Positions 328 through 17,335 of a DNA stretch of 64,000 nucleotides are shown here, piece by piece. The stretch comes from Escherichia coli (GTDB taxonomy: Bacteria > Pseudomonadota > Gammaproteobacteria > Enterobacterales > Enterobacteriaceae): NCBI RefSeq assembly GCF_003790525.1, contig NZ_CP033635.1, one strand, 5' to 3'. Position 1 is the first letter of the stretch, and each line of letters begins with the position of its first letter. The notes below the pieces were generated by a model. It searched no databases and was not told the origin of the DNA. It saw only the letters and a list, made by a program, of their open reading frames with translations. A program made the position numbers and the translations under genes.

Positions 328-966
328 ATGAAAAAGTTAACAGTGGCGGCTTTGGCAGTAACAACTCTTCTCTCTGGCAGTGCCTATGCGCATGAAGCAG
401 GCGAATTTTTTATGCGTGCAGGGTCTGCAACCGTACGTCCAACAGAAGGTGCTGGTGGTACGTTAGGAAGTCTGGGTGGATTCAGCGTGACCAATAACAC
501 GCAACTGGGCCTGACGTTTACTTATATGGCGACCGACAACATTGGTGTGGAATTACTGGCTGCGACGCCGTTCCGCCATAAAATCGGCACCCGGGCGACC
601 GGCGATATTGCAACCGTTCATCATCTGCCGCCAACACTGATGGCGCAGTGGTATTTTGGTGATGCCAGCAGCAAATTCCGTCCTTACGTTGGGGCAGGTA
701 TTAACTACACCACCTTCTTTGATAATGGATTTAACGATCATGGCAAAGAGGCGGGGCTTTCCGATCTCAGTCTGAAAGATTCCTGGGGAGCTGCCGGGCA
801 GGTGGGGGTTGATTATCTGATTAACCGTGACTGGTTGGTTAACATGTCAGTGTGGTACATGGATATCGACACCACCGCCAGCTATAAATTTAATGGAACC
901 CCCGTGAAAGACGCGGTACGACTGGATCCGTGGGTGTTTATGTTCTCTGCCGGATACCGCTTCTAA
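328..966 (+). CDS. ompW: Outer membrane protein W, chimeric: host 5' part plus prophage-supplied 3' end
   Basis: 212-aa ORF starting MKKLTVAALAVTTLLSGSAYA (signal peptide), typical OmpW beta-barrel sequence. The C-terminus after 'WYMDIDTTA' differs from the orphan native 3' end at 54735-54853. Confidence 0.95.
   Translation: MKKLTVAALAVTTLLSGSAYAHEAGEFFMRAGSATVRPTEGAGGTLGSLGGFSVTNNTQLGLTFTYMATDNIGVELLAATPFRHKIGTRATGDIATVHHLPPTLMAQWYFGDASSKFRPYVGAGINYTTFFDNGFNDHGKEAGLSDLSLKDSWGAAGQVGVDYLINRDWLVNMSVWYMDIDTTASYKFNGTPVKDAVRLDPWVFMFSAGYRF
848..880. repeat. attL core (direct repeat with 54735-54767)
   Basis: CAGTGTGGTACATGGATATCGA(C/T)ACCACCGCCA occurs at both prophage ends. The first 22 bp are identical, followed by one mismatch and 10 more identical bp. 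Confidence 0.85.
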
Positions 967-1005: not shown

Positions 1006-1030
1006 TGGTTATCAAATAACCAGTTTTTTC
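1003..1030 (+). terminator. Rho-independent terminator after chimeric ompW (overlaps int stop)
   Basis: 10-bp perfect stem AACTGGTTAT/ATAACCAGTT with loop CAAA, followed by a T6 run. Confidence 0.7.
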
Positions 1031-2142
1031 CACTCTTTACCGCGTGCGTCGTTGTAAATATCGGTCATTTTTTGATTCGAATGGCCCAGCAAAATTTTGG
1101 TATCAATTCCCTGTTCTCTGAACAATCGTTCTGATAAAGATCTTTGCTCATGGAAAGAGGGTGGCGTGCCATTAGCACGCCAGTTGTAATCCACAGAATC
1201 CCGGGCTTTTTTAAATGCGACTGTTAATGTTGCTGGTTTAACCATCCCGCCGCGCTTACCCATCCCCTTAGCGTGATGATGGTGCAATAACCACGGACTA
1301 AGGATGTAATCACGACAGGATGACACCACGTCACCCAGGGTAAGATTTAATTTGTCGCAACGCAGAGCCAGAGGAATGGCTATCCGGGCTCCTGTTTTTT
1401 GCTGTTCGACATGAAGGTAACCATCCCGGATATCCGAAAACTGCATTTTGCAAATATCCGAAAGACGCTGGCCCGTCATCAGTGCCAGCAGCATGCCGCG
1501 CTGTAAAAAGTAACCATCCTTTTCCGCTGCGTTATAAATCATCATCCACTCATCAAAAGTCAGTCGCTGTCTTGATATCCGCACTTGCGGTTTTTTTGCC
1601 GATTCAGCCGGGTTAAAGCCTGGCGGAACATCACCAGTTTGTTGAGCCTCCCGGAAAACATCGATCAATACCTTCCTGAAAATTTGTCCCATTCTGTTAT
1701 GTCCCTTTGCCTTGTATTCTTCCAGCACCGATACCACATCTTTTACGGTTATGGCATCTAGCGGCCTGGCTCCAAAACGTTCATCAAACACCCTGAGAGG
1801 AGCCGCTTTTTGCTTCAGCGTGCTGAGTTTGATCTCTCCGTTCTCATATCTTTCCTGTTGAATTTTTCTGTAATTATTCAGAAAAATGGAAACGGTTGAT
1901 GCGCCGCCGGTATCACTAATAATTTTCTCCTGCAGACTGAGCATTTGCTCCATTTGTTGTCTGGCAAGACGGCTGTTCGCTTCTGCTGAAATGGTTTCCG
2001 CCAGTTTCTGGTCAATACTGCCGAGTCCATGATTTTTACCTGTGATGGGATTCCTGTAACGCCAGTAAACTTTGTTATTTCTTTTGTCAAAATACGGAGA
2101 TAAACCCGGAACATCGGTTTTATATTTTCTCGGGCGCGCCAT
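1012..2142 (-). CDS. int: Tyrosine-recombinase integrase
   Basis: 376-aa ORF adjacent to attL. Catalytic-type motifs are GQRLSDI, HEQRSLSERL and LLGHSNQKMTDIYND. It overlaps xis by 23 nt. Confidence 0.95.
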   Translation of the reverse strand: MARPRKYKTDVPGLSPYFDKRNNKVYWRYRNPITGKNHGLGSIDQKLAETISAEANSRLARQQMEQMLSLQEKIISDTGGASTVSIFLNNYRKIQQERYENGEIKLSTLKQKAAPLRVFDERFGARPLDAITVKDVVSVLEEYKAKGHNRMGQIFRKVLIDVFREAQQTGDVPPGFNPAESAKKPQVRISRQRLTFDEWMMIYNAAEKDGYFLQRGMLLALMTGQRLSDICKMQFSDIRDGYLHVEQQKTGARIAIPLALRCDKLNLTLGDVVSSCRDYILSPWLLHHHHAKGMGKRGGMVKPATLTVAFKKARDSVDYNWRANGTPPSFHEQRSLSERLFREQGIDTKILLGHSNQKMTDIYNDARGKEWKKLVI

Positions 2143-2368
2143 CTTCCAGTATCCTCTTCAAAGCAGGGTGATCTGTGGCGATCACCTCCGGCTTGTTTAC
2201 CATTCCGACAAAGCGAGCGCGTGGATCCACTCGCCAGTGCCTTCCTACTTTTTTGGGGAGAGGAAATATCATTCCGGCTTTAGCGTATTTACTTAACGTA
2301 CCCGGAGTAGGGACTGGTTCACTGAATTCCTCTTTTGCCCACTCAGTGAGCAGAATAAGTCTTGCCAT
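2120..2368 (-). CDS. xis: Excisionase (lambda Xis-like)
   Basis: 82-aa ORF upstream of and overlapping int. The pattern L..EW....T......AG.IFP.PKKVGR.W.V resembles lambda Xis. Confidence 0.8.
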   Translation of the reverse strand: MARLILLTEWAKEEFSEPVPTPGTLSKYAKAGMIFPLPKKVGRHWRVDPRARFVGMVNKPEVIATDHPALKRILEDGAPEKI

Positions 2369-2432: not shown

Positions 2433-4886
2433 TTAAAAATCAGCCTGATTCGGGATCAGTTTTTGTATAGTGGCTGTTACGTATTTTGCCTGGTGAAGAG
2501 CGTCATCCAGAGCATTATGGCGCACGCCTTCGAATGGAATTACGCTTCTGGCATTGAAGTCTGTGATTTTCCCCATCTCAACGATTGTGCGTACATCACG
2601 ATCGTTGCTGTAATGCCACGGACAGGGGATGTCCAGACGTTCGTATGAGGTGCGCAAAATTGCGTTATCGAACGTTGCGCCATTACCCCACACCTGAACG
2701 AATTTTTCATCAGAGTGTTCATTGACGAATTCCCGAAAACGCAAAAGGGCATCTTTCATTTTTACCTGGTCAGTTAAAATGGCAGCTCTGGCTTCGCTGG
2801 ACTGCTTCAGCCACCATTCGATGGTGCCACCATCAGGAACAGCCCCTGTATTCATTGCGTCAGTCAGGCTGATAACGATATAAAATACCGGCCCGATTTC
2901 CCCTGTTTCCGGGTCGAAGAAAACCGCACCAATAACTACTATGGGTGCATTGGTGTTGGCTCCCATTGTTTCAAGGTCGACTGACAGGTGATTCCATACT
3001 CTGCTGGTGGATGTGATTTCACGATGACCGTTCATCTTAATTAAGGAATTTTCTGTTTCGCCAGTTTTATTATCGCTGGCGTGGCCCTGAGCGCCGCCAG
3101 TGTTCTCCTTGTGCGGATGCTCAGTGCCTTCCGTTTCCTCCGGATTTTTTTCCTGAGATTCAGCCTGATTTTCTCCATTGAATGTTTCCTGGTATGTTGC
3201 GTCACCCATTACTGAGCCACAATCAGGGCAGTTGCCGCCGCTGGTCTGACCGCAGGCGGTGCAGACTTTTTCCGGTTCCTGTTGCGCTACTGGCTCAGGT
3301 TGTTTCGTTTCTGGCTCGTTTTGTAACGCATTTTGGCTGTTTTGTTCCGCTTTCTGGTCGTTCTGTTCCGTTTCTTGCTGGTTCTGGTTCACTGAATCGC
3401 GAGTCTGGACTCCCTTAACCCATTTCAGATCATTCGGGTCGCTAATCCCTTCAACGAACTCACCACGCGAGGCCGCCAGTAATTTGTCTGCATCGACAGG
3501 ATTTTTGGGCGGAATGTTTTTCCTAGCTTCATGGAGTTCTGCCCGCAGTTTCTGATATTTCGCATCAACAGAATTCACCTGCGGCTGAGCATCCAGCGGC
3601 TGCGTGTCCGGATGATGTTCAGTTGTATCCGGTTCCACTGTTTCAGTCGTTGGCTGTTCATCTGCCATTGCGCCAGACGGTTGCGGTTTTTCTTCATCAT
3701 CCTGTTTTCCTTCTTCTGTTACACGCTGCGGCATTGGGGCAGAGGAACGACCGCAGGCAATATCCACGATTTCCGGATCAGGGTTGGCATGATCGGTTTC
3801 GGTCAGCACTTTATTCAGGTATTCGGTGACGCGCTGGGGCATAGCCTCTATACCAACCGGTGCTTCTTTCACGGAGGCAACCACGATGGCGCGGGAATAA
3901 TCCATCCCGCCTGGCATGTTCAGAAAAGCCTTAAGGAAGACGGAGAAACAGGGATCATTTTCTGCGATAATTTCGTTAACACGTCTGGTATGTGAAGGAT
4001 GCATGTTGTAAATATCCACATCCATCGAACGAGCCAGTTTTCCTGTAGCAACATCGAATGCCATTGACGCATTATCATGCACAAAACCTTCGCCGCGATC
4101 GGTAAGGATACCGCCGCCAGCGTTAGCGCCGGATGGTGTGCGACTGATGCGAGAAACACGATTTCCTTTCATCCACTCTTTTGTAAGCAGACCACGATCA
4201 GTGTAGTCAGCGTCCAGGTATGCTTCGATGAAGGAGGTCATCAGTCCCAGGTCTGAATTTACGGGGGCGGGAAAAACTTTGTCAGTGTCCCGCACCAGTT
4301 TGTACAAATCCCGAATCTCCAGCGGTTCGAGTTGCGCTGCTTTATTTGAGATGGCCAGCGCGGTAACGGCGGGAAGTTTTTCTTCCTGTGCGTTATGTAA
4401 TGAGCGCAGTTCATCCCGCGAAACGTGCGTTACTGGTTTTTCGCCGCCGTGTTGCGCCAGCCAGCGAACAGGCAGAATCTGACCTGAAACCGGCAGAAGC
4501 ATATTCTCCTCAATCTCAGTCATGTCTTCGCCATTAACATTGGTGTTGTCAGTGCTGGCTGGTTTGTCCTGCGCGGATGGCGGGGGCGCGATAAATATCA
4601 TTGTGATGCCATCTTCGCCGCCTTTTTCATACCGGTTACAGAATTCGGTATCAAACACGCCTTCCGGTGGAAGGTCATCAACAACGGGCAAATGGACGCG
4701 AACAGGTTTTTTAAAGTCGTCTTCATCATAATCGTTATCATCCATTGCGGTAATACAGCGGGAGATGGCAACAGATAATTTTTTTGCTGTAGTCCAGTAA
4801 AAACCACCTTTAATCCCAAGGCGTTTTCTGACTTTGTCATTTTTAGCTTCGCAATATAGCGCAAAAGTTTCTTTATCAGTGCTCAT
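2433..4886 (-). CDS. RecE N-terminal-region homolog fused to a DEDDh (DnaQ-like) 3'-5' exonuclease domain
   Basis: 817-aa ORF. The C-terminal ~190 aa carry the motifs [15 protein letters not shown] and [13 protein letters not shown]. The N-terminal ~600 aa match remembered Rac RecE non-catalytic sequence ([49 protein letters not shown]). Confidence 0.85.
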
Positions 4887-5005: not shown

Positions 5006-5227
5006 TCACCATGCCTCCGCCTTTACAGGTAAACCATCACGACCGAGGAAGACTTTAATCATGCGGTCAGTAATGCATGTTTTTGTAGTGAAATCACGGA
5101 TATAAAGTTTTTGCTTTTCGATATTGTTTGCCGATGCAACATATGTCCGGCCTTCGTAAATAACGTAATCGCCGGGAGTGACGCACTGGCGTGGTATTTC
5201 ATCGGTTCCGAAGTGATGAGCAATCAT
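5006..5227 (-). CDS. Hypothetical early-left-operon protein (73 aa)
   Basis: ORF in the same orientation as the flanking early genes. No recognisable motif. Confidence 0.55.
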
Positions 5228-5272: not shown

Positions 5273-5818
5273 CTATTTAATACTCAGCAACTGCTCGACG
5301 GTCATATTTTTAATTGCGCCCCGGTTTATGAGAGTCCATCCCTGCTTTTCCAGATAAAAACGGAAAGTATCCAGAGTACAGACCAGTGCGCCATCAGGAA
5401 CGGTTTCGGTGAATTTGATGTAGCCGTGTTCGTCGAAGCGGATAACCAGGGTGTGGTCATCACCCGGGATTATTTTGTCAGCGGGTGTGGTGTTATTCCG
5501 GCGCAGTTCTTCCTCCATGCGGTCGAACTCGGCAATGTAGGCTTCCTTGAATGCAGCGGCTTTTTTGCCGGTGAAGCCCATCACCAGGAAAACGAAGCCG
5601 TTTTTGGTGATTTGGTAGGCATTGTAGGTATTGCCACGGTGCTCGAATTTAACCCGCGAAAAGTTGCTGGTTAAAAAGCGTTCAGAACATTCGAGGGCTT
5701 CTATTTTTTGAACAACATGGTGATGCTGCTTGCCGAAGAATTCTGCGATCGCAATAGACGTAGTGACAGCGCGACCATTTTCAATGGTTACGTCAGGGTG
5801 AGAAAGGGTAGTAGCCAT
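5273..5818 (-). CDS. rha: Rha-family phage regulatory protein
   Basis: Starts at internal Met (MATTLSHPDV...). The sequence RAVTTSIAIAEFFGKQHHHVVQKIEAL fits the pRha domain. The 99-codon upstream extension of the ORF contains a terminator hairpin and is judged non-coding. Confidence 0.8.
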   Translation of the reverse strand: MATTLSHPDVTIENGRAVTTSIAIAEFFGKQHHHVVQKIEALECSERFLTSNFSRVKFEHRGNTYNAYQITKNGFVFLVMGFTGKKAAAFKEAYIAEFDRMEEELRRNNTTPADKIIPGDDHTLVIRFDEHGYIKFTETVPDGALVCTLDTFRFYLEKQGWTLINRGAIKNMTVEQLLSIK

Positions 5819-5985
5819 GATGGCATCCTCAAGTGTTAAGTTAATTAACTCACCACCGAGGCTTTCCACGACCATAAGGGTGGCGAGACGTACAGGGGTG
5901 GAAATACCGGTCACTCGAGAACCCGGCCAGCCTTGCAGCTGCCCTGCACGCCCCACCATTATCTGAATGTGGCTGTGCTTAACGC

Positions 5986-6011
5986 ATAAAAAAACCGCTT
6001 CGGCGCGGTTA
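5986..6011 (-). terminator. Rho-independent terminator in the early-left transcript
   Basis: On the minus strand, AACCGC-GCCGAA-GCGGTT is followed by T7 (plus strand: A7 then AACCGCTTCGGCGCGGTT). Confidence 0.5.
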
Positions 6012-6293
6012 TGCGCTCGAGTAACTTTCGGGTTTCCACGCCCGGCACCCGTTTTATGAGGTGCAGGTGCACTATAATTCCACCCGTACTGGTTTTCAAT
6101 AGCTACATTCAACATTTTCTCTTACCTTTCATCACCGAAGTGAACTTTGTTGATGCGGTGCCAGGTGCCTCCAGGTGACGTTAACCAGTTAACAATTAAC
6201 GCCGGATACAGAGAATCCACCCATAACACTGTTTTTGGTTTTAACTGTTCCGCGTGCGCTGAGCCGCATTCACCACATCACAAAATTCACTTT

Positions 6294-6349: not shown

Positions 6350-6540
6350 ATTGATAACAGAGGGCGTTGCAGCGGGGTTGTCACTCAGGCGCATGGTCAA
6401 CCTGACAACCCGGTGTCCTCAAGGGGAAGGGAACCCCGCCATGCTTACCGCCGCGCGCTTTCGTGTTGTGTGCCTGCTTTTAACCACGTCAGGCGAGGTG
6501 GTATCCTCTGAGGGGTCTGTTACCCGAGAGGAAATTGGTT

Positions 6541-6741
6541 ATGAATACAATCAAGTTTTCTTGCCCAGAATGTGGTGGCGAAGTCTTCGACACATCCTTT
6601 AAGCCGCAGGGCTCTGACAGTTTCGCGGGAGCCATCTGCAAAAATTGTGGTCACCTTGTAACTGAAGATGAGTCCTCGCAATTCGATGAGGAAATCGTTG
6701 ACAATATCTTCGGTGTAATCACCGGAGCCTTTCTGAAGTAA
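6541..6741 (+). CDS. Small zinc-ribbon protein (66 aa)
   Basis: MNTIKFSCPECGGEVF...CKNCGHLV gives two CxxC pairs. GAGG lies upstream of the ATG. The ORF is antiparallel to the pL operon and overlaps a less convincing minus-strand ORF. Confidence 0.45.
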   Translation: MNTIKFSCPECGGEVFDTSFKPQGSDSFAGAICKNCGHLVTEDESSQFDEEIVDNIFGVITGAFLK

Positions 6742-7059
6742 AGGCACATACCGCTTAGTTACCGCTCTGATAATTCTTACCTGTCCGGCAATGGCGCTGA
6801 TGTCAATATAAAGCGCCATTGCTGCTTCTTTGCCGATCCCGGGATGCCTTCCATTCTGATGTTTGACTTCGCCCACTGAGAAATCCTCTGTTTCCCCTTA
6901 ACGCCGGGGTAGCGGAACAAAAACCTGCTGCATAGTTAAAGTTAAACCCTGCCGTCATGTTCATACGCCTCGGGCTGGCTACTTAACCCCTGACCACTGC
7001 CTGGTAACTCGAAGTATTGCCCTGCGTTCTGTGGGGCGGGGTGGGTTGGTATGAAAGAA

Positions 7060-7144: not shown

Positions 7145-7564
7145 TTATGATGCGTTTTGTGCTTTCTTTTTACGGATTTCTTCGTAGATCATATTGTAAT
7201 ACTGTTTTTTCTCTTCAAGAGTTTTTAATAAGTTATCCGCTTCACTTTCAGGCAGTTCGTCTAAGAGATCTAAAAAAATACGTTGTCGTGGCGTTAGAAC
7301 CCTTGTTTCATAATTGGAGGCTGTGTTCGTTGATGATGAAACGATACCATCCATCCATCCCCGGGGTAACCCAAAGGACTCTTCTATAATCTCCACCATA
7401 TCATCAGCGATCCGTTTTTTTCCTTTTTTCCCCTCTGGGTACAACATTCTTGATACATAAGAAGGCTCGCGACCGATCTTTCTGGCCACGTTAACCGCTT
7501 TACCATCGCATTTCTCATCACGAATTTTGATGAGTTGTTGTCGTCTAAATTCATATTTGTCCAT
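7145..7564 (-). CDS. Prophage repressor (RacR/phage-CI HTH type)
   Basis: 139 aa from MDKYEFRRQQL. The HTH region is AVNVARKIGREPSYVSRML and the IEESFGLPRGWMDG motif is like RacR. It is divergent from the cro-like gene, and the start sits almost directly behind a TATTAT -10, so the mRNA may be leaderless. Confidence 0.8.
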   Translation of the reverse strand: MDKYEFRRQQLIKIRDEKCDGKAVNVARKIGREPSYVSRMLYPEGKKGKKRIADDMVEIIEESFGLPRGWMDGIVSSSTNTASNYETRVLTPRQRIFLDLLDELPESEADNLLKTLEEKKQYYNMIYEEIRKKKAQNAS

Positions 7565-7584
7565 AGGTAAATAATAGATGCGAT

Positions 7585-7640
7585 TACCGCAAGGTAAACA
7601 ACCCAAGGGTATTGACTTTTGTTTACCTGTGGGTATTCTT
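7585..7640. promoter_or_regulatory. OR-type operators (three sites) and candidate pR
   Basis: TACCGCAAGGTA (7585-7596), AACCCAAGGGTA (7600-7611) and TACCTGTGGGTA (7624-7635). TTGACT at 7612-7617 and TATTCT at 7634-7639 face the cro-like gene. Confidence 0.55.
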
Positions 7641-7665: not shown

Positions 7666-7947
7666 ATGGAAGAATTAAGAATATTTCTCAATTCTCTTTC
7701 GTCAGATGAACAGCGTATGTTTGCATGTGAGTGTGGTACTAGCATCGGTTATCTAAGAAAGGCATTGAGTAAAGGTCAAATGTTAGGGGCATCGTTATGT
7801 GTCCTTATTGAGCGAGCCAGTAATGGTGAAGTTACACGTCAGCAACTAAGGCCTTTTGATTGGATGAATATTTGGCCCGAGCTGGAAGATACCAAAACGT
7901 TAACACAACCACTTACTAGGAGCTTGATTCATGAAAATCAAGCATGA
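7666..7947 (+). CDS. Cro/YdaS-like HTH regulator
   Basis: 93 aa, first gene of the rightward operon. The motif ...IERASNGEVTRQQLRPFDW resembles Rac YdaS. Confidence 0.8.
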   Translation: MEELRIFLNSLSSDEQRMFACECGTSIGYLRKALSKGQMLGASLCVLIERASNGEVTRQQLRPFDWMNIWPELEDTKTLTQPLTRSLIHENQA

Positions 7948-13033: not shown

Positions 13034-13333
13034 TTATAAGAAATCGGTTTCATAACTTTGTCCGCCATGATAAACACCTGCGATAAAGACTTTATTGTCA
13101 TCAACGGCAAAAGCAATAATCGTTCTGTGGCGGAAATGAGTTACCCGCATCCCCTGGCGAATATCATCGCGTTTATTGCCCCGATGCGGAAATGCAGAAA
13201 ACCCATCAAGATAATCAAGAAGCGCATTGGCATAATTGTCAGCAATGACGCCTCCTGCTTTCTCCGTTATATATCTGTGCAGGTTTATTATCTGCTGTTC
13301 GGCCTCGGGGGTAATGATGACTTCAAATGTCAT
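13034..13333 (-). CDS. parE: ParE/RelE-family toxin
   Basis: 99 aa, MTFEVIITPEAEQQIINLHRYI...FPHRGNKRDDIRQGMRVTHFRHRTIIAF, which is a typical ParE pattern. It lies 5 nt downstream of the antitoxin gene. Confidence 0.9.
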   Translation of the reverse strand: MTFEVIITPEAEQQIINLHRYITEKAGGVIADNYANALLDYLDGFSAFPHRGNKRDDIRQGMRVTHFRHRTIIAFAVDDNKVFIAGVYHGGQSYETDFL

Positions 13334-13338
13334 GCAGA

Positions 13339-13596
13339 CTACTTCCCGGATCTAATCGCGGCGCGAACCTGTGAAATGGAGCGTCCGTTGTTTGGGTTTT
13401 CGCGGATAGAATCAAGAGAGGGGGCGACTGAATGCGTTAACCACGCTTCGATTGCTTTATCGCGCTCATTCAGTGCGCGAAGCCCTTCACGAATGACCTC
13501 GCTTTCTGAAGCATAGGCACCGGAAGCCACACGGGAGCGCACCATGTCAGCCATCTCGTTAGTTAATGTAATACTGAATTGTTGGGTTGTACGCAT
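13339..13596 (-). CDS. parD: ParD/CopG-type (RHH) antitoxin
   Basis: 85 aa from the internal Met (MRTTQQFSITLTNEMADMVRSRVASGAYASESEVIREGLRAL). This is a ribbon-helix-helix N-terminus. Confidence 0.85.
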   Translation of the reverse strand: MRTTQQFSITLTNEMADMVRSRVASGAYASESEVIREGLRALNERDKAIEAWLTHSVAPSLDSIRENPNNGRSISQVRAAIRSGK

Positions 13597-13731
13597 GGTA
13601 AACCTCACGGAGTAGGATAGAACACCATTCGATGATAGCACGCTGCCTGTTGACGACAACAGAAATCAGAGACAATATTGCCTCCAGCCAGCCTGAACAA
13701 CTGGCACCTGCTGCGCCAGCAGAGACAACGG

Positions 13732-17181: not shown

Positions 17182-17257
17182 GTCCCTTTAGCTCAGTGGT
17201 GAGAGCGAGCGACTCATAATCGCCAGGTCGCTGGTTCAAATCCAGCAAGGGCCACCA
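17182..17257 (+). tRNA. tRNA with CAT anticodon (Met or lysidine-modified Ile2 type)
   Basis: 76-nt cloverleaf with D stem GCTC/GAGC, anticodon loop CTCATAA, T arm GCTGG-TTCAAAT-CCAGC and an encoded CCA. There is one acceptor-stem mismatch (U2-C71). Confidence 0.85.
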
Positions 17258-17258
17258 A

Positions 17259-17335
17259 CCGCCACTAGCTCATCAGGAGAGAGCATCAGCCTTCTAAGCT
17301 GACTGTGCGGGGTTCGAGTCCCCGGTGGCGGTCCA
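17259..17335 (+). tRNA. tRNA-Arg (UCU)
   Basis: Perfect acceptor stem CCGCCAC/GTGGCGG, anticodon loop CTTCTAA, T arm CGGGG-TTCGAGT-CCCCG and an encoded CCA. Confidence 0.9.

Follow-up and report, generated by a model that had tools for sequence, protein, structure and literature searches.

A RecE-type scaffold joined to a DexA-type DEDDh exonuclease domain, with no annealase partner, in an Escherichia coli prophage

The stretch of E. coli DNA analysed here (64,000 nucleotides, hereafter the window) carries an intact prophage gene whose product combines a RecE-type scaffold and linker with a DEDDh nuclease head, in the place where Rac RecE has its PD-(D/E)XK nuclease. We consider it probable that this protein is a stand-alone 3'-5' DNA exonuclease, built on a scaffold able to carry the one nuclease or the other, and that it serves DNA degradation or phage conflict and not annealing recombination.

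2433..4886, minus strand: exonuclease gene, 817 aa, comprising RecE-type scaffold, linker with zinc ribbon and DEDDh head (ORF and translation)

The ORF is intact, with an ATG start and a GAGG 8 nt upstream (read from the sequence). The sequence blocks quoted in an earlier reading made from the sequence only were all recovered at their positions in the 817-aa translation, as follows.

aa 114-132: 19-residue quoted block, found in the translation
aa 232-245: 14-residue quoted block, found in the translation
aa 378-405: 28-residue quoted block, found in the translation
aa 542-557: 16-residue zinc-ribbon block, found in the translation
aa 559-569: 11-residue quoted block, found in the translation
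aa 637-642: DLETMG, found in the translation
aa 733-741: WGNGATFDN, found in the translation
aa 790-796: HNALDDA, found in the translation

The protein can be divided into the following modules, all encoded on the same strand as the gene.

4716..4886, minus strand: N-terminal alpha/beta sub-module, aa 1-57, absent from K-12 RecE and common to other RecE-family proteins
4182..4715, minus strand: RecE-type scaffold part 1, aa 58-235, overlapping PF06630, with a helical domain at ~aa 114-240 (AF2)
3687..4181, minus strand: conserved core of the scaffold family, aa 236-400 (motifs from alignment)
2994..3686, minus strand: linker, aa 401-631, acidic, Q/E/P-rich and mostly disordered (composition, AF2)
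3216..3263, minus strand: CxxC...CxxC zinc-ribbon motif, 16 residues, aa 542-557 (read from sequence)
2472..2993, minus strand: DEDDh 3'-5' exonuclease domain, aa 632-805 (PF16473; DexA/EcD/Rv2179c-like family)

Residues 1-620 had been described as collinear with the N-terminal region of Rac RecE. This holds for aa 58-616, which align with residues 50-591 of K-12 Rac RecE at 70% identity (BLASTP, 790 bits) with nothing aligning beyond, but not for aa 1-57, for which BLASTP returned no match to K-12 RecE. These first residues are covered by NF007259 and phrog_32949, and are modelled by AF2 with a pLDDT of about 72-92. Residues 1-616 match positions 1-602 of the 877 in the NCBIfam model NF007259, with a score (1028) that lies under the cutoff of 1269 because the C-terminal third is absent, and Pfam places the RecE-specific N-terminal region, PF06630 (Exonuc_VIII), at aa 57-189 (E 1e-26). 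At the DNA level, similarity to Rac recE starts at nt 339 of the gene. The conserved core at aa 236-400 is the most widespread sub-module among 175 representatives, and is recognizable in alignments by the motifs RTxSGxNAGGGxxTDR, DFDIYN, PGxLDYSRA and LTExDHxxP..ACG. AF2 predicts it to be a helical domain (pLDDT about 81-95), and fold searches with the predicted scaffold found no structural relative in PDB or BFVD. A further unit, module B, begins at ~aa 440, holds a 24-residue motif together with the zinc ribbon, and is common to RecE, the 817-aa protein and the related exonuclease of phage Tritos. The cysteines of the ribbon are nearly invariant among aligned homologues, and aa 465-610 match Rac recE and the Tritos gene alike at ~79% DNA identity. 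An AF2 model of aa 440-817 gave pLDDT values below 50 across aa 490-627 and yielded no confident structure for the linker and zinc ribbon. The break in similarity to RecE falls ~15 residues ahead of the point where the crystallised RecE nuclease domain begins; past RecE residue 591 there is no BLASTP similarity, and no PD-(D/E)XK domain was matched by Pfam in the 817-aa protein. Pfam, BLASTP and the boundaries of the DNA mosaic concur with the earlier proposal of a nuclease exchange on a conserved scaffold, with DEDDh standing where RecE has PD-(D/E)XK. To say that one nuclease stands instead of the other carries no information on which form is ancestral.

The match of the head to PF16473 has an E-value of 2.7e-66 and, at 223 bits, lies above the cutoff of 27; it spans positions 1-175 of the 177 in the model. 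The Exo I (DxE; D637/E639), Exo II (Nx3FD; N735..F739-D740) and Exo III (Hx4D; H790..D795) motifs are all present, and the catalytic residues D637, E639, D740, H790 and D795 align with D7/E9/D119/H186/D191 of T4 DexA and are kept by 109-110 of the 110 unique homologues. AF2 models this domain with a pLDDT of about 75-94, and a Foldseek search of PDB with it ranked T4 DexA (8kel) first, with E 8.7e-12; next came RNase T, Orn/REXO2 and a DnaQ domain, and each of these matches had a probability of 1.00. By sequence, phmmer against PDB, run at E up to 1, also placed DexA first (E 2e-9), the remaining matches being chance hits to T-cell receptors. Motifs, Pfam PF16473 and Foldseek agree on the DEDDh fold, in keeping with the DnaQ-like C-terminal domain recognised in the sequence-only reading. 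On these similarities the head is best explained as a putative DEDDh exonuclease that would depend on Mg2+, in the family of T4 DexA, E. coli EcD and Rv2179c-like proteins; 3'-5' polarity would follow by analogy from family membership, and the substrate is presumably DNA. RNA 3' ends could instead be the target, whether of host or phage transcripts, of sRNAs such as DicF or of nucleotide-based signals, as Pfam and PGAP have named the family for Rv2179c, the 3'-5' exoribonuclease of M. tuberculosis, many sources call the protein a '3'-5' exoribonuclease', and RNase T and oligoribonuclease are among its structural neighbours. We regard a role as an exoribonuclease as very unlikely, however, since DexA, the sole sequence match in PDB, is a DNA exonuclease, since DNA is the substrate of EcD, the closest E. 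coli relative assayed, and since the DEDDh domain takes the place of a DNA nuclease on a scaffold of DNA recombination.

The earlier reading implied that such a protein would be rare. A survey of both C-terminal variants found both of them in E. coli, and the DEDDh head proved to be the majority form, being present in 4177 of 5426 complete genomes (77%) as compared to 1743 (32%) for the RecE nuclease. An identical protein, WP_097733765.1, is labelled 'exonuclease' in TUM1886 (PGAP) and belongs to a 90% cluster of 973 members; PGAP already gives the DEDDh form the name "3'-5' exonuclease". Identical copies of the 817-aa protein occur in several complete genomes, with two copies within one genome, and the gene is also found in the phage collection, for example in Tritos, HannyBb, Evi and mEp460. 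Lambdoid prophages show high mosaicism and frequent decay in their early regions, K-12 ydfE being a decayed remnant of this gene family and PPompW_EH2246 having a frameshifted copy, all of which could point to a non-functional chimera produced by prophage decay or by misassembly. The intact ORF, the identical copies in complete genomes and the size of the cluster oppose such an origin, as do the conserved catalytic residues, the occurrence in phage-collection phages and the pattern of substitutions in the domain, where 315 synonymous-like exceed 268 amino-acid changes, consistent with purifying selection. We accordingly judge a chimera or remnant to be extremely improbable. A pseudogene or assembly chimera was rejected as effectively refuted by the conservation data, and a swap unique to one strain was rejected as ruled out by the prevalence across E. 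coli genomes.

Across the family, both types of N-terminus were found with both heads (IMG/VR loci), and the family is a mosaic of a scaffold, a common linker with zinc ribbon and an interchangeable nuclease. Among 150 representatives ~21 have the RecE nuclease and ~15 the DEDDh head. A Pfam scan for a third head in 45 long representatives with neither of these, most of which look like fragments, returned only two RecT fusions and one weak PDDEXK-like match. The Tritos type is the commoner among 64 IMG/VR DEDDh loci (45/64, versus 6/64 for the type in the window), and K-12 ydfE is a truncated remnant of the Tritos/Qin-type exonuclease. Searches of the literature on the PF16473 family, on ydfE and on DexA-like prophage exonucleases found nothing on long RecE-scaffold forms, and the family has been overlooked partly because K-12 has no copy of it other than ydfE, a truncated pseudogene.

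The gene resides in a ~54-kb lambdoid prophage inserted at the 3' end of ompW, which is duplicated at window positions 848-956 and 54735-54843, and lies in an early-left operon with the order Rha-kil-exo-xis-int.

1012..2142, minus strand: integrase (ORF list, PGAP)
2120..2368, minus strand: excisionase, 64 nt downstream of the exonuclease gene (ORF list, PGAP)
5006..5227, minus strand: kil, FtsZ inhibitor, Rac KilR-like, upstream in the same operon (PGAP of identical region)
5273..6115, minus strand: Rha-family regulator, farther upstream in the early-left operon (PGAP; phrog_995/518)
7145..7606, minus strand: candidate prophage repressor in CI/RacR-like position, marking the start of the leftward early operon (ORF list; PGAP 'hypothetical protein')
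7666-7947, divergent from the repressor: cro-like gene

The kil region has 89% DNA identity to the stretch upstream of Rac recE, where kilR lies. The candidate repressor adjoins a transcriptional regulator and a YdaT-family gene (PGAP), a layout like that of the annotated CI/Cro of phage Tritos. Consensus scans for a promoter or terminator belonging to the gene itself gave matches at chance level, and gene order suggests early expression with the rest of the operon.

Neither the PGAP annotation of the corresponding, near-identical region of TUM1886 nor PHROG profiles run against ten early window ORFs revealed a RecT, Bet or Erf beside the gene or elsewhere in the prophage, which extends to the whole prophage the earlier observation that none is adjacent. 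The position of recT in Rac is empty here because no gene lies between the exonuclease and xis. Related IMG/VR loci were covered by a seed search for RecT, Bet and Erf, and the window by the TUM1886 annotation and the PHROG scan. RecT, Bet, Erf, lambda Exo, Gam and Abc2 were found in none of the 64 DEDDh loci, whereas RecT accompanies the RecE nuclease in 80 of 80 control loci, a set that is almost clonal (Rac prophages 99-100% identical); in Klebsiella, too, a RecE with the PD-(D/E)XK head has RecT after it. Tritos, 689R5, PPompW_EH2246 and Chris1 all have the order exo-xis-int or exo-int with no annotated annealase. In the SSA and RecF pathways RecT, Bet and RecA use 3' tails, which 3'-5' resection destroys. 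The protein should thus not be a two-component (SynExo) recombinase, both because there is no annealase and because 3'-5' resection makes no 3' tails for RecT, Bet or RecA, and the earlier suggestion that it is not a classical recombineering exonuclease is the best-supported reading, RecT being tied to the other head.

A recombination or end-processing exonuclease that trims phage 3' ends or flaps, and feeds RecA/RecFOR or an unrecognised distant annealase, would likewise be expected to remove the 3' tails that RecT, Bet and RecA need. Such a role would suit the genomic slot and the large part of scaffold and linker in common with recE; the slot is one where lambda and Rac keep recombination genes, which argues for some recombination-related function, and the nin region of the prophage has kept RusA and a DUF968/HNH protein in the position of NinG. 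Full-length RecE, scaffold included, is also cited as enhancing linear-linear recombination (Fu 2012, via PMC11611040). We nonetheless think this role unlikely given the absence of RecT, Bet, Erf, Gam and Abc2 from 64/64 loci and from the window prophage, and the strict linkage of RecT to the RecE-nuclease head.

The relatives of the head that have been assayed on DNA are DexA and EcD, both 3'-5' exonucleases, of which EcD protects against T4 (PMC12153337). EcD is the 'HREX' anti-T4 exonuclease (Kang et al., NAR 2025), with T4 resistance resulting from leaky plasmid expression, and the same study treats the stand-alone proteins as bacterial defence genes, with long RecE-scaffold forms and prophage context unmentioned (PMC12153337). 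DexA W152 and D169 have been proposed to recognise 5hmC, and the tetramer-forming DexA D90 corresponds to Ala78 in EcD, a loss said to prevent cleavage of unmodified DNA (PMC12153337).

2607..2609, minus strand: codon 760, AGC (Ser), aligned with DexA W152, the proposed 5hmC-stacking residue

No site in the domain varies more than codon 760 (top column entropy among 101 sequences; Y/H/C/T/S/N), which lies in a column anchored by the invariant N153, R155 and R158 of the DexA alignment. Near-identical DNA copies differ at this codon, and parsimony assigns to it 8 amino-acid versus 0 synonymous changes. Homoplasy at the codon could reflect inter-prophage recombination instead of repeated mutation. 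Where EcD has the Trp and an acidic residue (Glu) at the two 5hmC positions, the 817-aa protein has Ser760 and Lys773, the W152 column being well anchored and the D169 column, which adjoins a gap of 4 residues, less certain. At the position of DexA D90 the protein still has an Asp (Asp712), as do 100 of 110 homologues. The analogy to DexA and EcD may consequently not reach substrate choice, because the proposed 5hmC residues are not conserved (W152 to Ser, D169 to Lys). A 189-aa protein, taken as EcD by its match to the forward cloning primer, its length, A78 and its C-terminal sequence, has 34% identity to aa 636-810 with an intact catalytic site, and its gene belongs to the early genes of a P2-like prophage. 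The published EcD reverse primer has a one-base mismatch to the loci, and the EcD accession, HAK9828821.1, was not among the 15 listed cluster members of the 189-aa protein.

These comparisons bear on whether the protein is a long-form HREX/EcD-type defence nuclease, which would be expressed from the prophage and shield the lysogen by specifically attacking DNA with 5hmC or other hypermodification when T-even-like phages superinfect. EcD, which confers T4 resistance, belongs to the same family at 34% identity, a hypervariable residue occupies the position of DexA W152, and the gene is found widely, and in several copies, across E. coli. In relatives, this operon also holds known exclusion factors such as dicB, whose part in exclusion was reportedly described by Ragunathan and Vanderpool in 2019. 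However, the Ser/Lys pair at the W152/D169 positions and the D90 equivalent, retained unlike in EcD, are not what EcD would predict, and the gene lies in a repressed early-left operon with no promoter of its own detected. The presence of the EcD-like gene in a P2-like prophage early region suggests instead a phage-cycle function for the family. PADLOC defence models did not match the 817-aa protein, and gave the Tritos-type and EcD-like proteins only a weak generic match ('DEDDh, Cas-associated'). Dedicated defence of the EcD type therefore appears quite unlikely to us.

Returning to the reading that we favour, a stand-alone exonuclease for DNA degradation or phage conflict, lambdoid prophages would have a modular early gene, of which this is one allele, made up of a scaffold (aa 1-400), a linker (aa 401-631) and an exchangeable head. 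Loss of the repressor would lead to its transcription from the leftward early promoter along with kil, xis and int. The DEDDh head would then strip nucleotides from DNA 3' ends, while scaffold and linker may tether or deliver it to a target, independently of which nuclease is attached and of RecT; both this delivery role, for which fold searches with the scaffold gave no match, and the biological target are inferred. A degradative or discriminatory role would be the more likely one, directed at host, competitor-phage or modified DNA as for DexA and EcD, and the fast-changing residue 760 may tune the choice of substrate. A bolder extension, in which the RecE N-terminal region is a general nuclease-delivery platform of temperate enterobacterial phages with interchangeable heads, and the DEDDh version a DNA-discriminating weapon for conflict between phages or between phage and host, carried by about three quarters of E. 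coli genomes, often in multiple copies and with its specificity repeatedly retuned at residue 760 as a lone base-recognition site, is one that we hold to be doubtful. If it were true, the long-unexplained RecE N-terminus would be a targeting module, and many E. coli 'exodeoxyribonuclease VIII' genes would have no recombination function.

A structural review of 2023 still described the 600-residue N-terminal region of RecE as 'of unknown function' (PMC11611040). Its reuse with two nucleases amounts to a natural experiment on this region, and as these are unrelated it is reasonable to propose that the region has a role of its own, as the sequence-only reading had suggested. Since the N-terminus works with both nucleases and without RecT, hypotheses on its function narrow to targeting or tethering to DNA or to a host factor, and away from RecT loading. 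In most E. coli prophages, moreover, the RecE-like gene is not functionally RecE, having another nuclease fold with the opposite expected polarity and lacking RecT. The label 'exodeoxyribonuclease VIII' is still used by some sources, and both the label and the inference of RecET-type recombination are unsafe. Here the DexA/EcD family proves to include a great many long forms carried by prophages, and hypervariability of a residue whose position is proposed to read DNA modification is what one would expect of an arms-race determinant.

Amongst known systems, Rac RecE resembles the 817-aa protein in its conserved core, linker and zinc ribbon, all within the 70%-identical stretch, and in occupying the equivalent genomic slot between kil and xis-int of the early-left operon. 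It differs in that its PD-(D/E)XK nuclease (crystallised residues 606-866) gives way here to a DEDDh domain that is unrelated to it and expected to have the opposite polarity, in having first residues unlike the 57 aa of the window protein, and in the recT gene that is missing downstream of the latter. The Tritos/Qin-type exonuclease (TRITO_27) has the same three-module plan, a DEDDh head (73% identity over aa 465-817) and the same position before xis-int with no annealase. BLASTP detects no relation in its N-terminal 460 aa, where the RTxSGxNAGGGxxTDR loop is missing, although hhalign identifies a diverged homologue of the scaffold core (99.3%, E 2.6e-20), and its residue 760 is Tyr. T4 DexA (PDB 8kel/8ken) is of the same DEDDh family, with the five catalytic residues in common and the best sequence and fold match in PDB, but it comes from a virulent phage, stands alone with 227 aa, has extra surface loops and is only ~26% identical. 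EcD has a homologous DEDDh domain, and its 189-aa counterpart is also encoded in a prophage early region (P2-like); it stands alone without a scaffold and has Trp, Glu and Ala at the W152/D169/D90 positions as opposed to Ser, Lys and Asp in the 817-aa protein. M. tuberculosis Rv2179c, after which PF16473 is named, belongs to the same family but is a stand-alone bacterial exoribonuclease, and is more distant from the head than DexA, assuming that its structure was in the PDB copy searched. Lambda Red (Exo-Bet-Gam) and other SynExo modules hold the equivalent early-left position in lambdoid genomes, but the 817-aa protein is unrelated to Exo, Bet and Gam, has neither annealase nor RecBCD inhibitor with it, and is expected to act with the opposite polarity.

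A single long ORF on the minus strand (window 2433-4886; ATG start, GAGG 8 nt upstream) encodes an 817 aa product, in which all peptide blocks quoted in the sequence-only reading were found in the order given. A Pfam scan places Exonuc_VIII (PF06630) at aa 57-189 and a Rv2179c-like 3'-5' exonuclease domain (PF16473) at aa 632-805 (E 2.7e-66). The NCBIfam exodeoxyribonuclease VIII equivalog aligns model positions 1-602 of 877 with aa 1-616, but the score misses the cutoff, since nothing in the window protein corresponds to the final third of the model. By direct BLASTP, residues 50-591 of K-12 RecE, taken from the Rac prophage, are 70% identical to aa 58-616, bearing out the proposed likeness of the N-terminal part to RecE, and the alignment ends there. 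The crystallised RecE nuclease domain (PDB 3H4R) begins at residue 606. A review delimits the same domain as 564-866 (PMC11611040). The point of exchange therefore coincides with the domain boundary.

Motifs, sequence matches and predicted fold identify the C-terminal head as a genuine member of the DEDDh exonucleases. Its catalytic residues D637, E639, D740, H790 and D795 come from the Exo I, II and III motifs and align with D7, E9, D119, H186 and D191 of the phage T4 3'-5' DNA exonuclease DexA. These residues are kept in 109-110 of 110 unique homologues, and a dead chimera is hardly credible. In a phmmer search of the PDB the sole matching sequences were wild-type DexA and its S87A/D90A mutant (8kel, 8ken). 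An AF2 model of aa 440-817 (head pLDDT ~75-94) gave DexA as the best Foldseek match in the PDB (E 8.7e-12), followed by RNase T, oligoribonuclease/REXO2 and a DnaQ domain; together with the motifs and Pfam match, this agrees with the earlier assignment of the head to the DEDDh fold. RNA as the substrate, to which the RNase T and oligoribonuclease matches might point, is very unlikely, with DexA leading both searches.

Comparison across the family shows a mosaic of three modules, namely an N-terminal scaffold (A), a middle region (B) and the nuclease head (C). Module A occurs as A1, the RecE type present in the window protein, and A2, present in phage Tritos; the two have no BLASTP relation, yet hhalign detects the conserved core of A1, in diverged form, within A2 (99.3%, E 2.6e-20). 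Module B (aa ~440-616) is common to RecE, the window protein and Tritos (~79% DNA identity) and offers an obvious place for shuffling by recombination; in it are the [24 protein letters not shown] motif, a disordered Q/E-rich stretch, an acidic tail and a zinc ribbon of the CxxC...CxxC form. The head, module C, is either PD-(D/E)XK, RecE's own nuclease, or DEDDh, and each A type was found with each C type in IMG/VR. The scaffold family is small and enterobacterial (175 representatives at E <=1e-3 among 1.84 billion clusters), the best 150 representatives including ~21 RecE nuclease and ~15 DEDDh heads. One representative (P0121, 703 aa) lacks a nuclease domain, its RecE-type scaffold being joined directly to a RecT domain (PF03837, aa 528-678), and a RecT domain is also found on one other of 45 scanned scaffold proteins. 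In K-12, the ydfE pseudogene of the Qin prophage (L183:1579-2343) corresponds to the first 255 aa of an A2/DEDDh (Tritos-type) exonuclease at 99% identity and is cut by IS2E. The sole K-12 member is this truncated dead copy, which explains why K-12 genetics has not come across the family; K-12 is said to lack DexA homologues (PMC12153337), with which the truncated ydfE is consistent.

AF2 modelling of aa 1-400 from an 83-sequence alignment covering several enterobacterial genera (mean pLDDT 82) predicts an alpha/beta unit (aa 1-100) and helical domains at aa ~114-240 and ~270-390. Within the core (aa 236-400, window 3687-4181) lies a nearly invariant, glycine-rich loop, RTxSGxNAGGGxxTDR (aa 249-264), where model confidence is lower and which is missing from the homologous Tritos/ydfE-type scaffold. 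The scaffold is found with either of two unrelated nucleases and can do without RecT, and we infer that it serves as a targeting or tethering module.

The gene belongs to a ~54-kb lambdoid prophage inserted at the 3' end of ompW, whose duplication marks the prophage ends (window 848-956 and 54735-54843). E. coli TUM1886 is nearly identical over the left 43 kb of the window; from ~43 kb on, collinearity with the closest complete genome is lost, with rearranged tail-fibre repeats and an IS element. The genes around the exonuclease run in the order repressor, dicB fragment, Rha, kil, exonuclease, xis, int.

Neighbours of the exonuclease gene, from repressor to integrase (window coordinates)
7145-7606, minus strand, repressor, first in the order
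6535-6741, plus strand, small ECs_2282-family zinc-binding ORF, between Rha and the repressor
~6147-6230, minus strand, truncated dicB remnant, between Rha and the repressor
5273-6115, minus strand, Rha
5006-5227, minus strand, kil, preceding the exonuclease
2120-2368, minus strand, xis, following the exonuclease
1012-2142, minus strand, int, last in the order, after xis

The exonuclease and xis are just 64 nt apart; in Rac, by contrast, the interval from recE to xisR holds recT, ralR and rcbA. Related phages such as Tritos and 689R5 have an intact dicB-ydfD pair directly upstream of the exonuclease, a place taken by kil in the window prophage. In TUM1886 the 817-aa gene is present twice, as identical copies (L002:12001-14454 and L003:2435-4888) in different prophages, one at ompW and the other at tRNA-Ser, each just upstream of a different excisionase-integrase pair. 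The early-right region of the window prophage encodes a RelE/ParE-family toxin paired with a ParD antitoxin (~13034-13597, minus strand; names from PGAP of the near-identical genome). Downstream of the Q antiterminator are two phage-borne tRNA genes (17182-17335, plus strand), called tRNA-Met (CAT) and tRNA-Arg (TCT) by ARAGORN; in PGAP the first is a tRNA-Ile, the reading to be expected if its CAT anticodon is lysidine-modified.

Across loci, RecT tracks the head and not the scaffold. None of the 64 DEDDh-head IMG/VR loci, with flanks of up to 10 kb, matched RecT (two seeds), Bet, Erf, lambda Exo, Gam or Abc2. Sak, Sak4, Rad52-like and gp2.5-like annealases were covered through the PGAP and PHROG annotations of several loci, where none appears. 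RecT was present in 80 of 80 RecE-nuclease loci, a nearly clonal Rac set, and lies immediately downstream of a 1012-aa RecE in a Klebsiella phage. No annealase is annotated in Tritos, 689R5, PPompW_EH2246, Chris1 or around either TUM1886 copy. RecT, Bet and Erf are all absent from the PGAP annotation of the near-identical prophage in TUM1886, and a PHROG scan found none among ten unnamed early ORFs of the window, in keeping with the earlier claim that no such gene is adjacent. A part in recombination or end processing, played together with host RecA or with an annealase that escaped notice, as the RecE-type scaffold might suggest, is unlikely beside this distribution of RecT. We consider it probable that the window protein is a 3'-5' DNA exonuclease working alone, which would be expressed together with the early-left operon, delivered by a scaffold able to carry both kinds of nuclease, and used in degrading or discriminating DNA rather than in single-strand-annealing recombination.

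The window gene is common, not exceptional, and the DEDDh form dominates in E. coli. DNA queries against 5,426 complete E. coli genomes located the DEDDh head in 4177 (8894 places; median 2, maximum 8 per genome), the RecE PD-(D/E)XK head in 1743 (about one copy per genome, with recT under or beside the match), and the window-type architecture, taken as the whole gene at a coverage of at least 80%, in 1017. All of the best 120 matches in a 5.8-billion-protein collection have the PF06630+PF16473 architecture, under the names 'exonuclease', '3'-5' exoribonuclease' and occasionally 'exodeoxyribonuclease VIII', and the 90% cluster of the window protein has 973 members. Carriers in the phage collection are vB_EcoS-689R5 and relatives, Tritos, HannyBb, Evi, mEp460, PPompW phages and Citrobacter phage Chris1.

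The structure of T4 DexA was solved by Kang et al. (NAR 2025; PMC12153337), and an E. coli homologue, EcD, was described there as a 3'-5' exonuclease that cuts 5hmC-containing T4 DNA, not unmodified DNA, and protects cells against T4, a strategy named 'HREX' (PMC12153337). The EcD cloning primer from the supplement of that paper led to a stand-alone DEDDh protein of 189 aa (MIDTET...TPFLNI) in six IMG/VR contigs (L179 at 6401-6991, L158, L163, L173, L174 and L176). Like EcD as described in the paper, it has Ala at position 78, and it shares 34% identity with aa 636-810 of the window protein. Its gene belongs to the early part of a P2-like prophage, where a gpA-like nickase, a DNA methyltransferase and an integrase are encoded nearby, and this 'bacterial' defence gene is therefore itself phage-borne. 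DexA W152 and D169, proposed for 5hmC recognition (PMC12153337), correspond to Ser760 and, by a less certain alignment, Lys773 in the window protein (Trp and Glu in the EcD-like protein), and D90, proposed for tetramer formation (PMC12153337), is retained as Asp712 (Ala78 in the EcD-like protein). The window protein, although of the same enzyme family as DexA and EcD, differs from them at the specificity-linked positions and therefore lacks the specific features of HREX. True HREX-type lysogen defence against modified phages, although suggested by this kinship, is quite unlikely.

Within the DEDDh domain, entropy peaks at the column that matches DexA W152 (Y 44, H 18, C 17, T 9, S 7, N 6 among 101 unique long-form domains). 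Across 52 DNA copies codon 760 (window 2607-2609, minus strand) is CAC, TAC, TGC or AGC, differing between copies otherwise 2-5 nt apart in 591, with W757, Y759, N761, D762 and R763 unchanged around it. Fitch parsimony on a neighbour-joining tree gives residue 760 8 amino-acid and 0 synonymous changes (mean 1.35 amino-acid changes per site), equalled or exceeded only by aa 623 (9) and aa 813 (8), both outside the Pfam domain; because prophage recombination could inflate this count, it is a lead and not proof of positive selection. Residue 760 is a hypervariable putative specificity position.

Since both domains, like their architecture, had been catalogued before and the gene is abundant, it does not amount to a new kind of system. 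New with respect to the accessible literature are the recognition of the RecE scaffold as a shared platform with interchangeable heads, the strict linkage of RecT to one head only, the dominance of the DEDDh form in E. coli, and the tie to the DexA/EcD family, with a putative specificity residue that is hypervariable.
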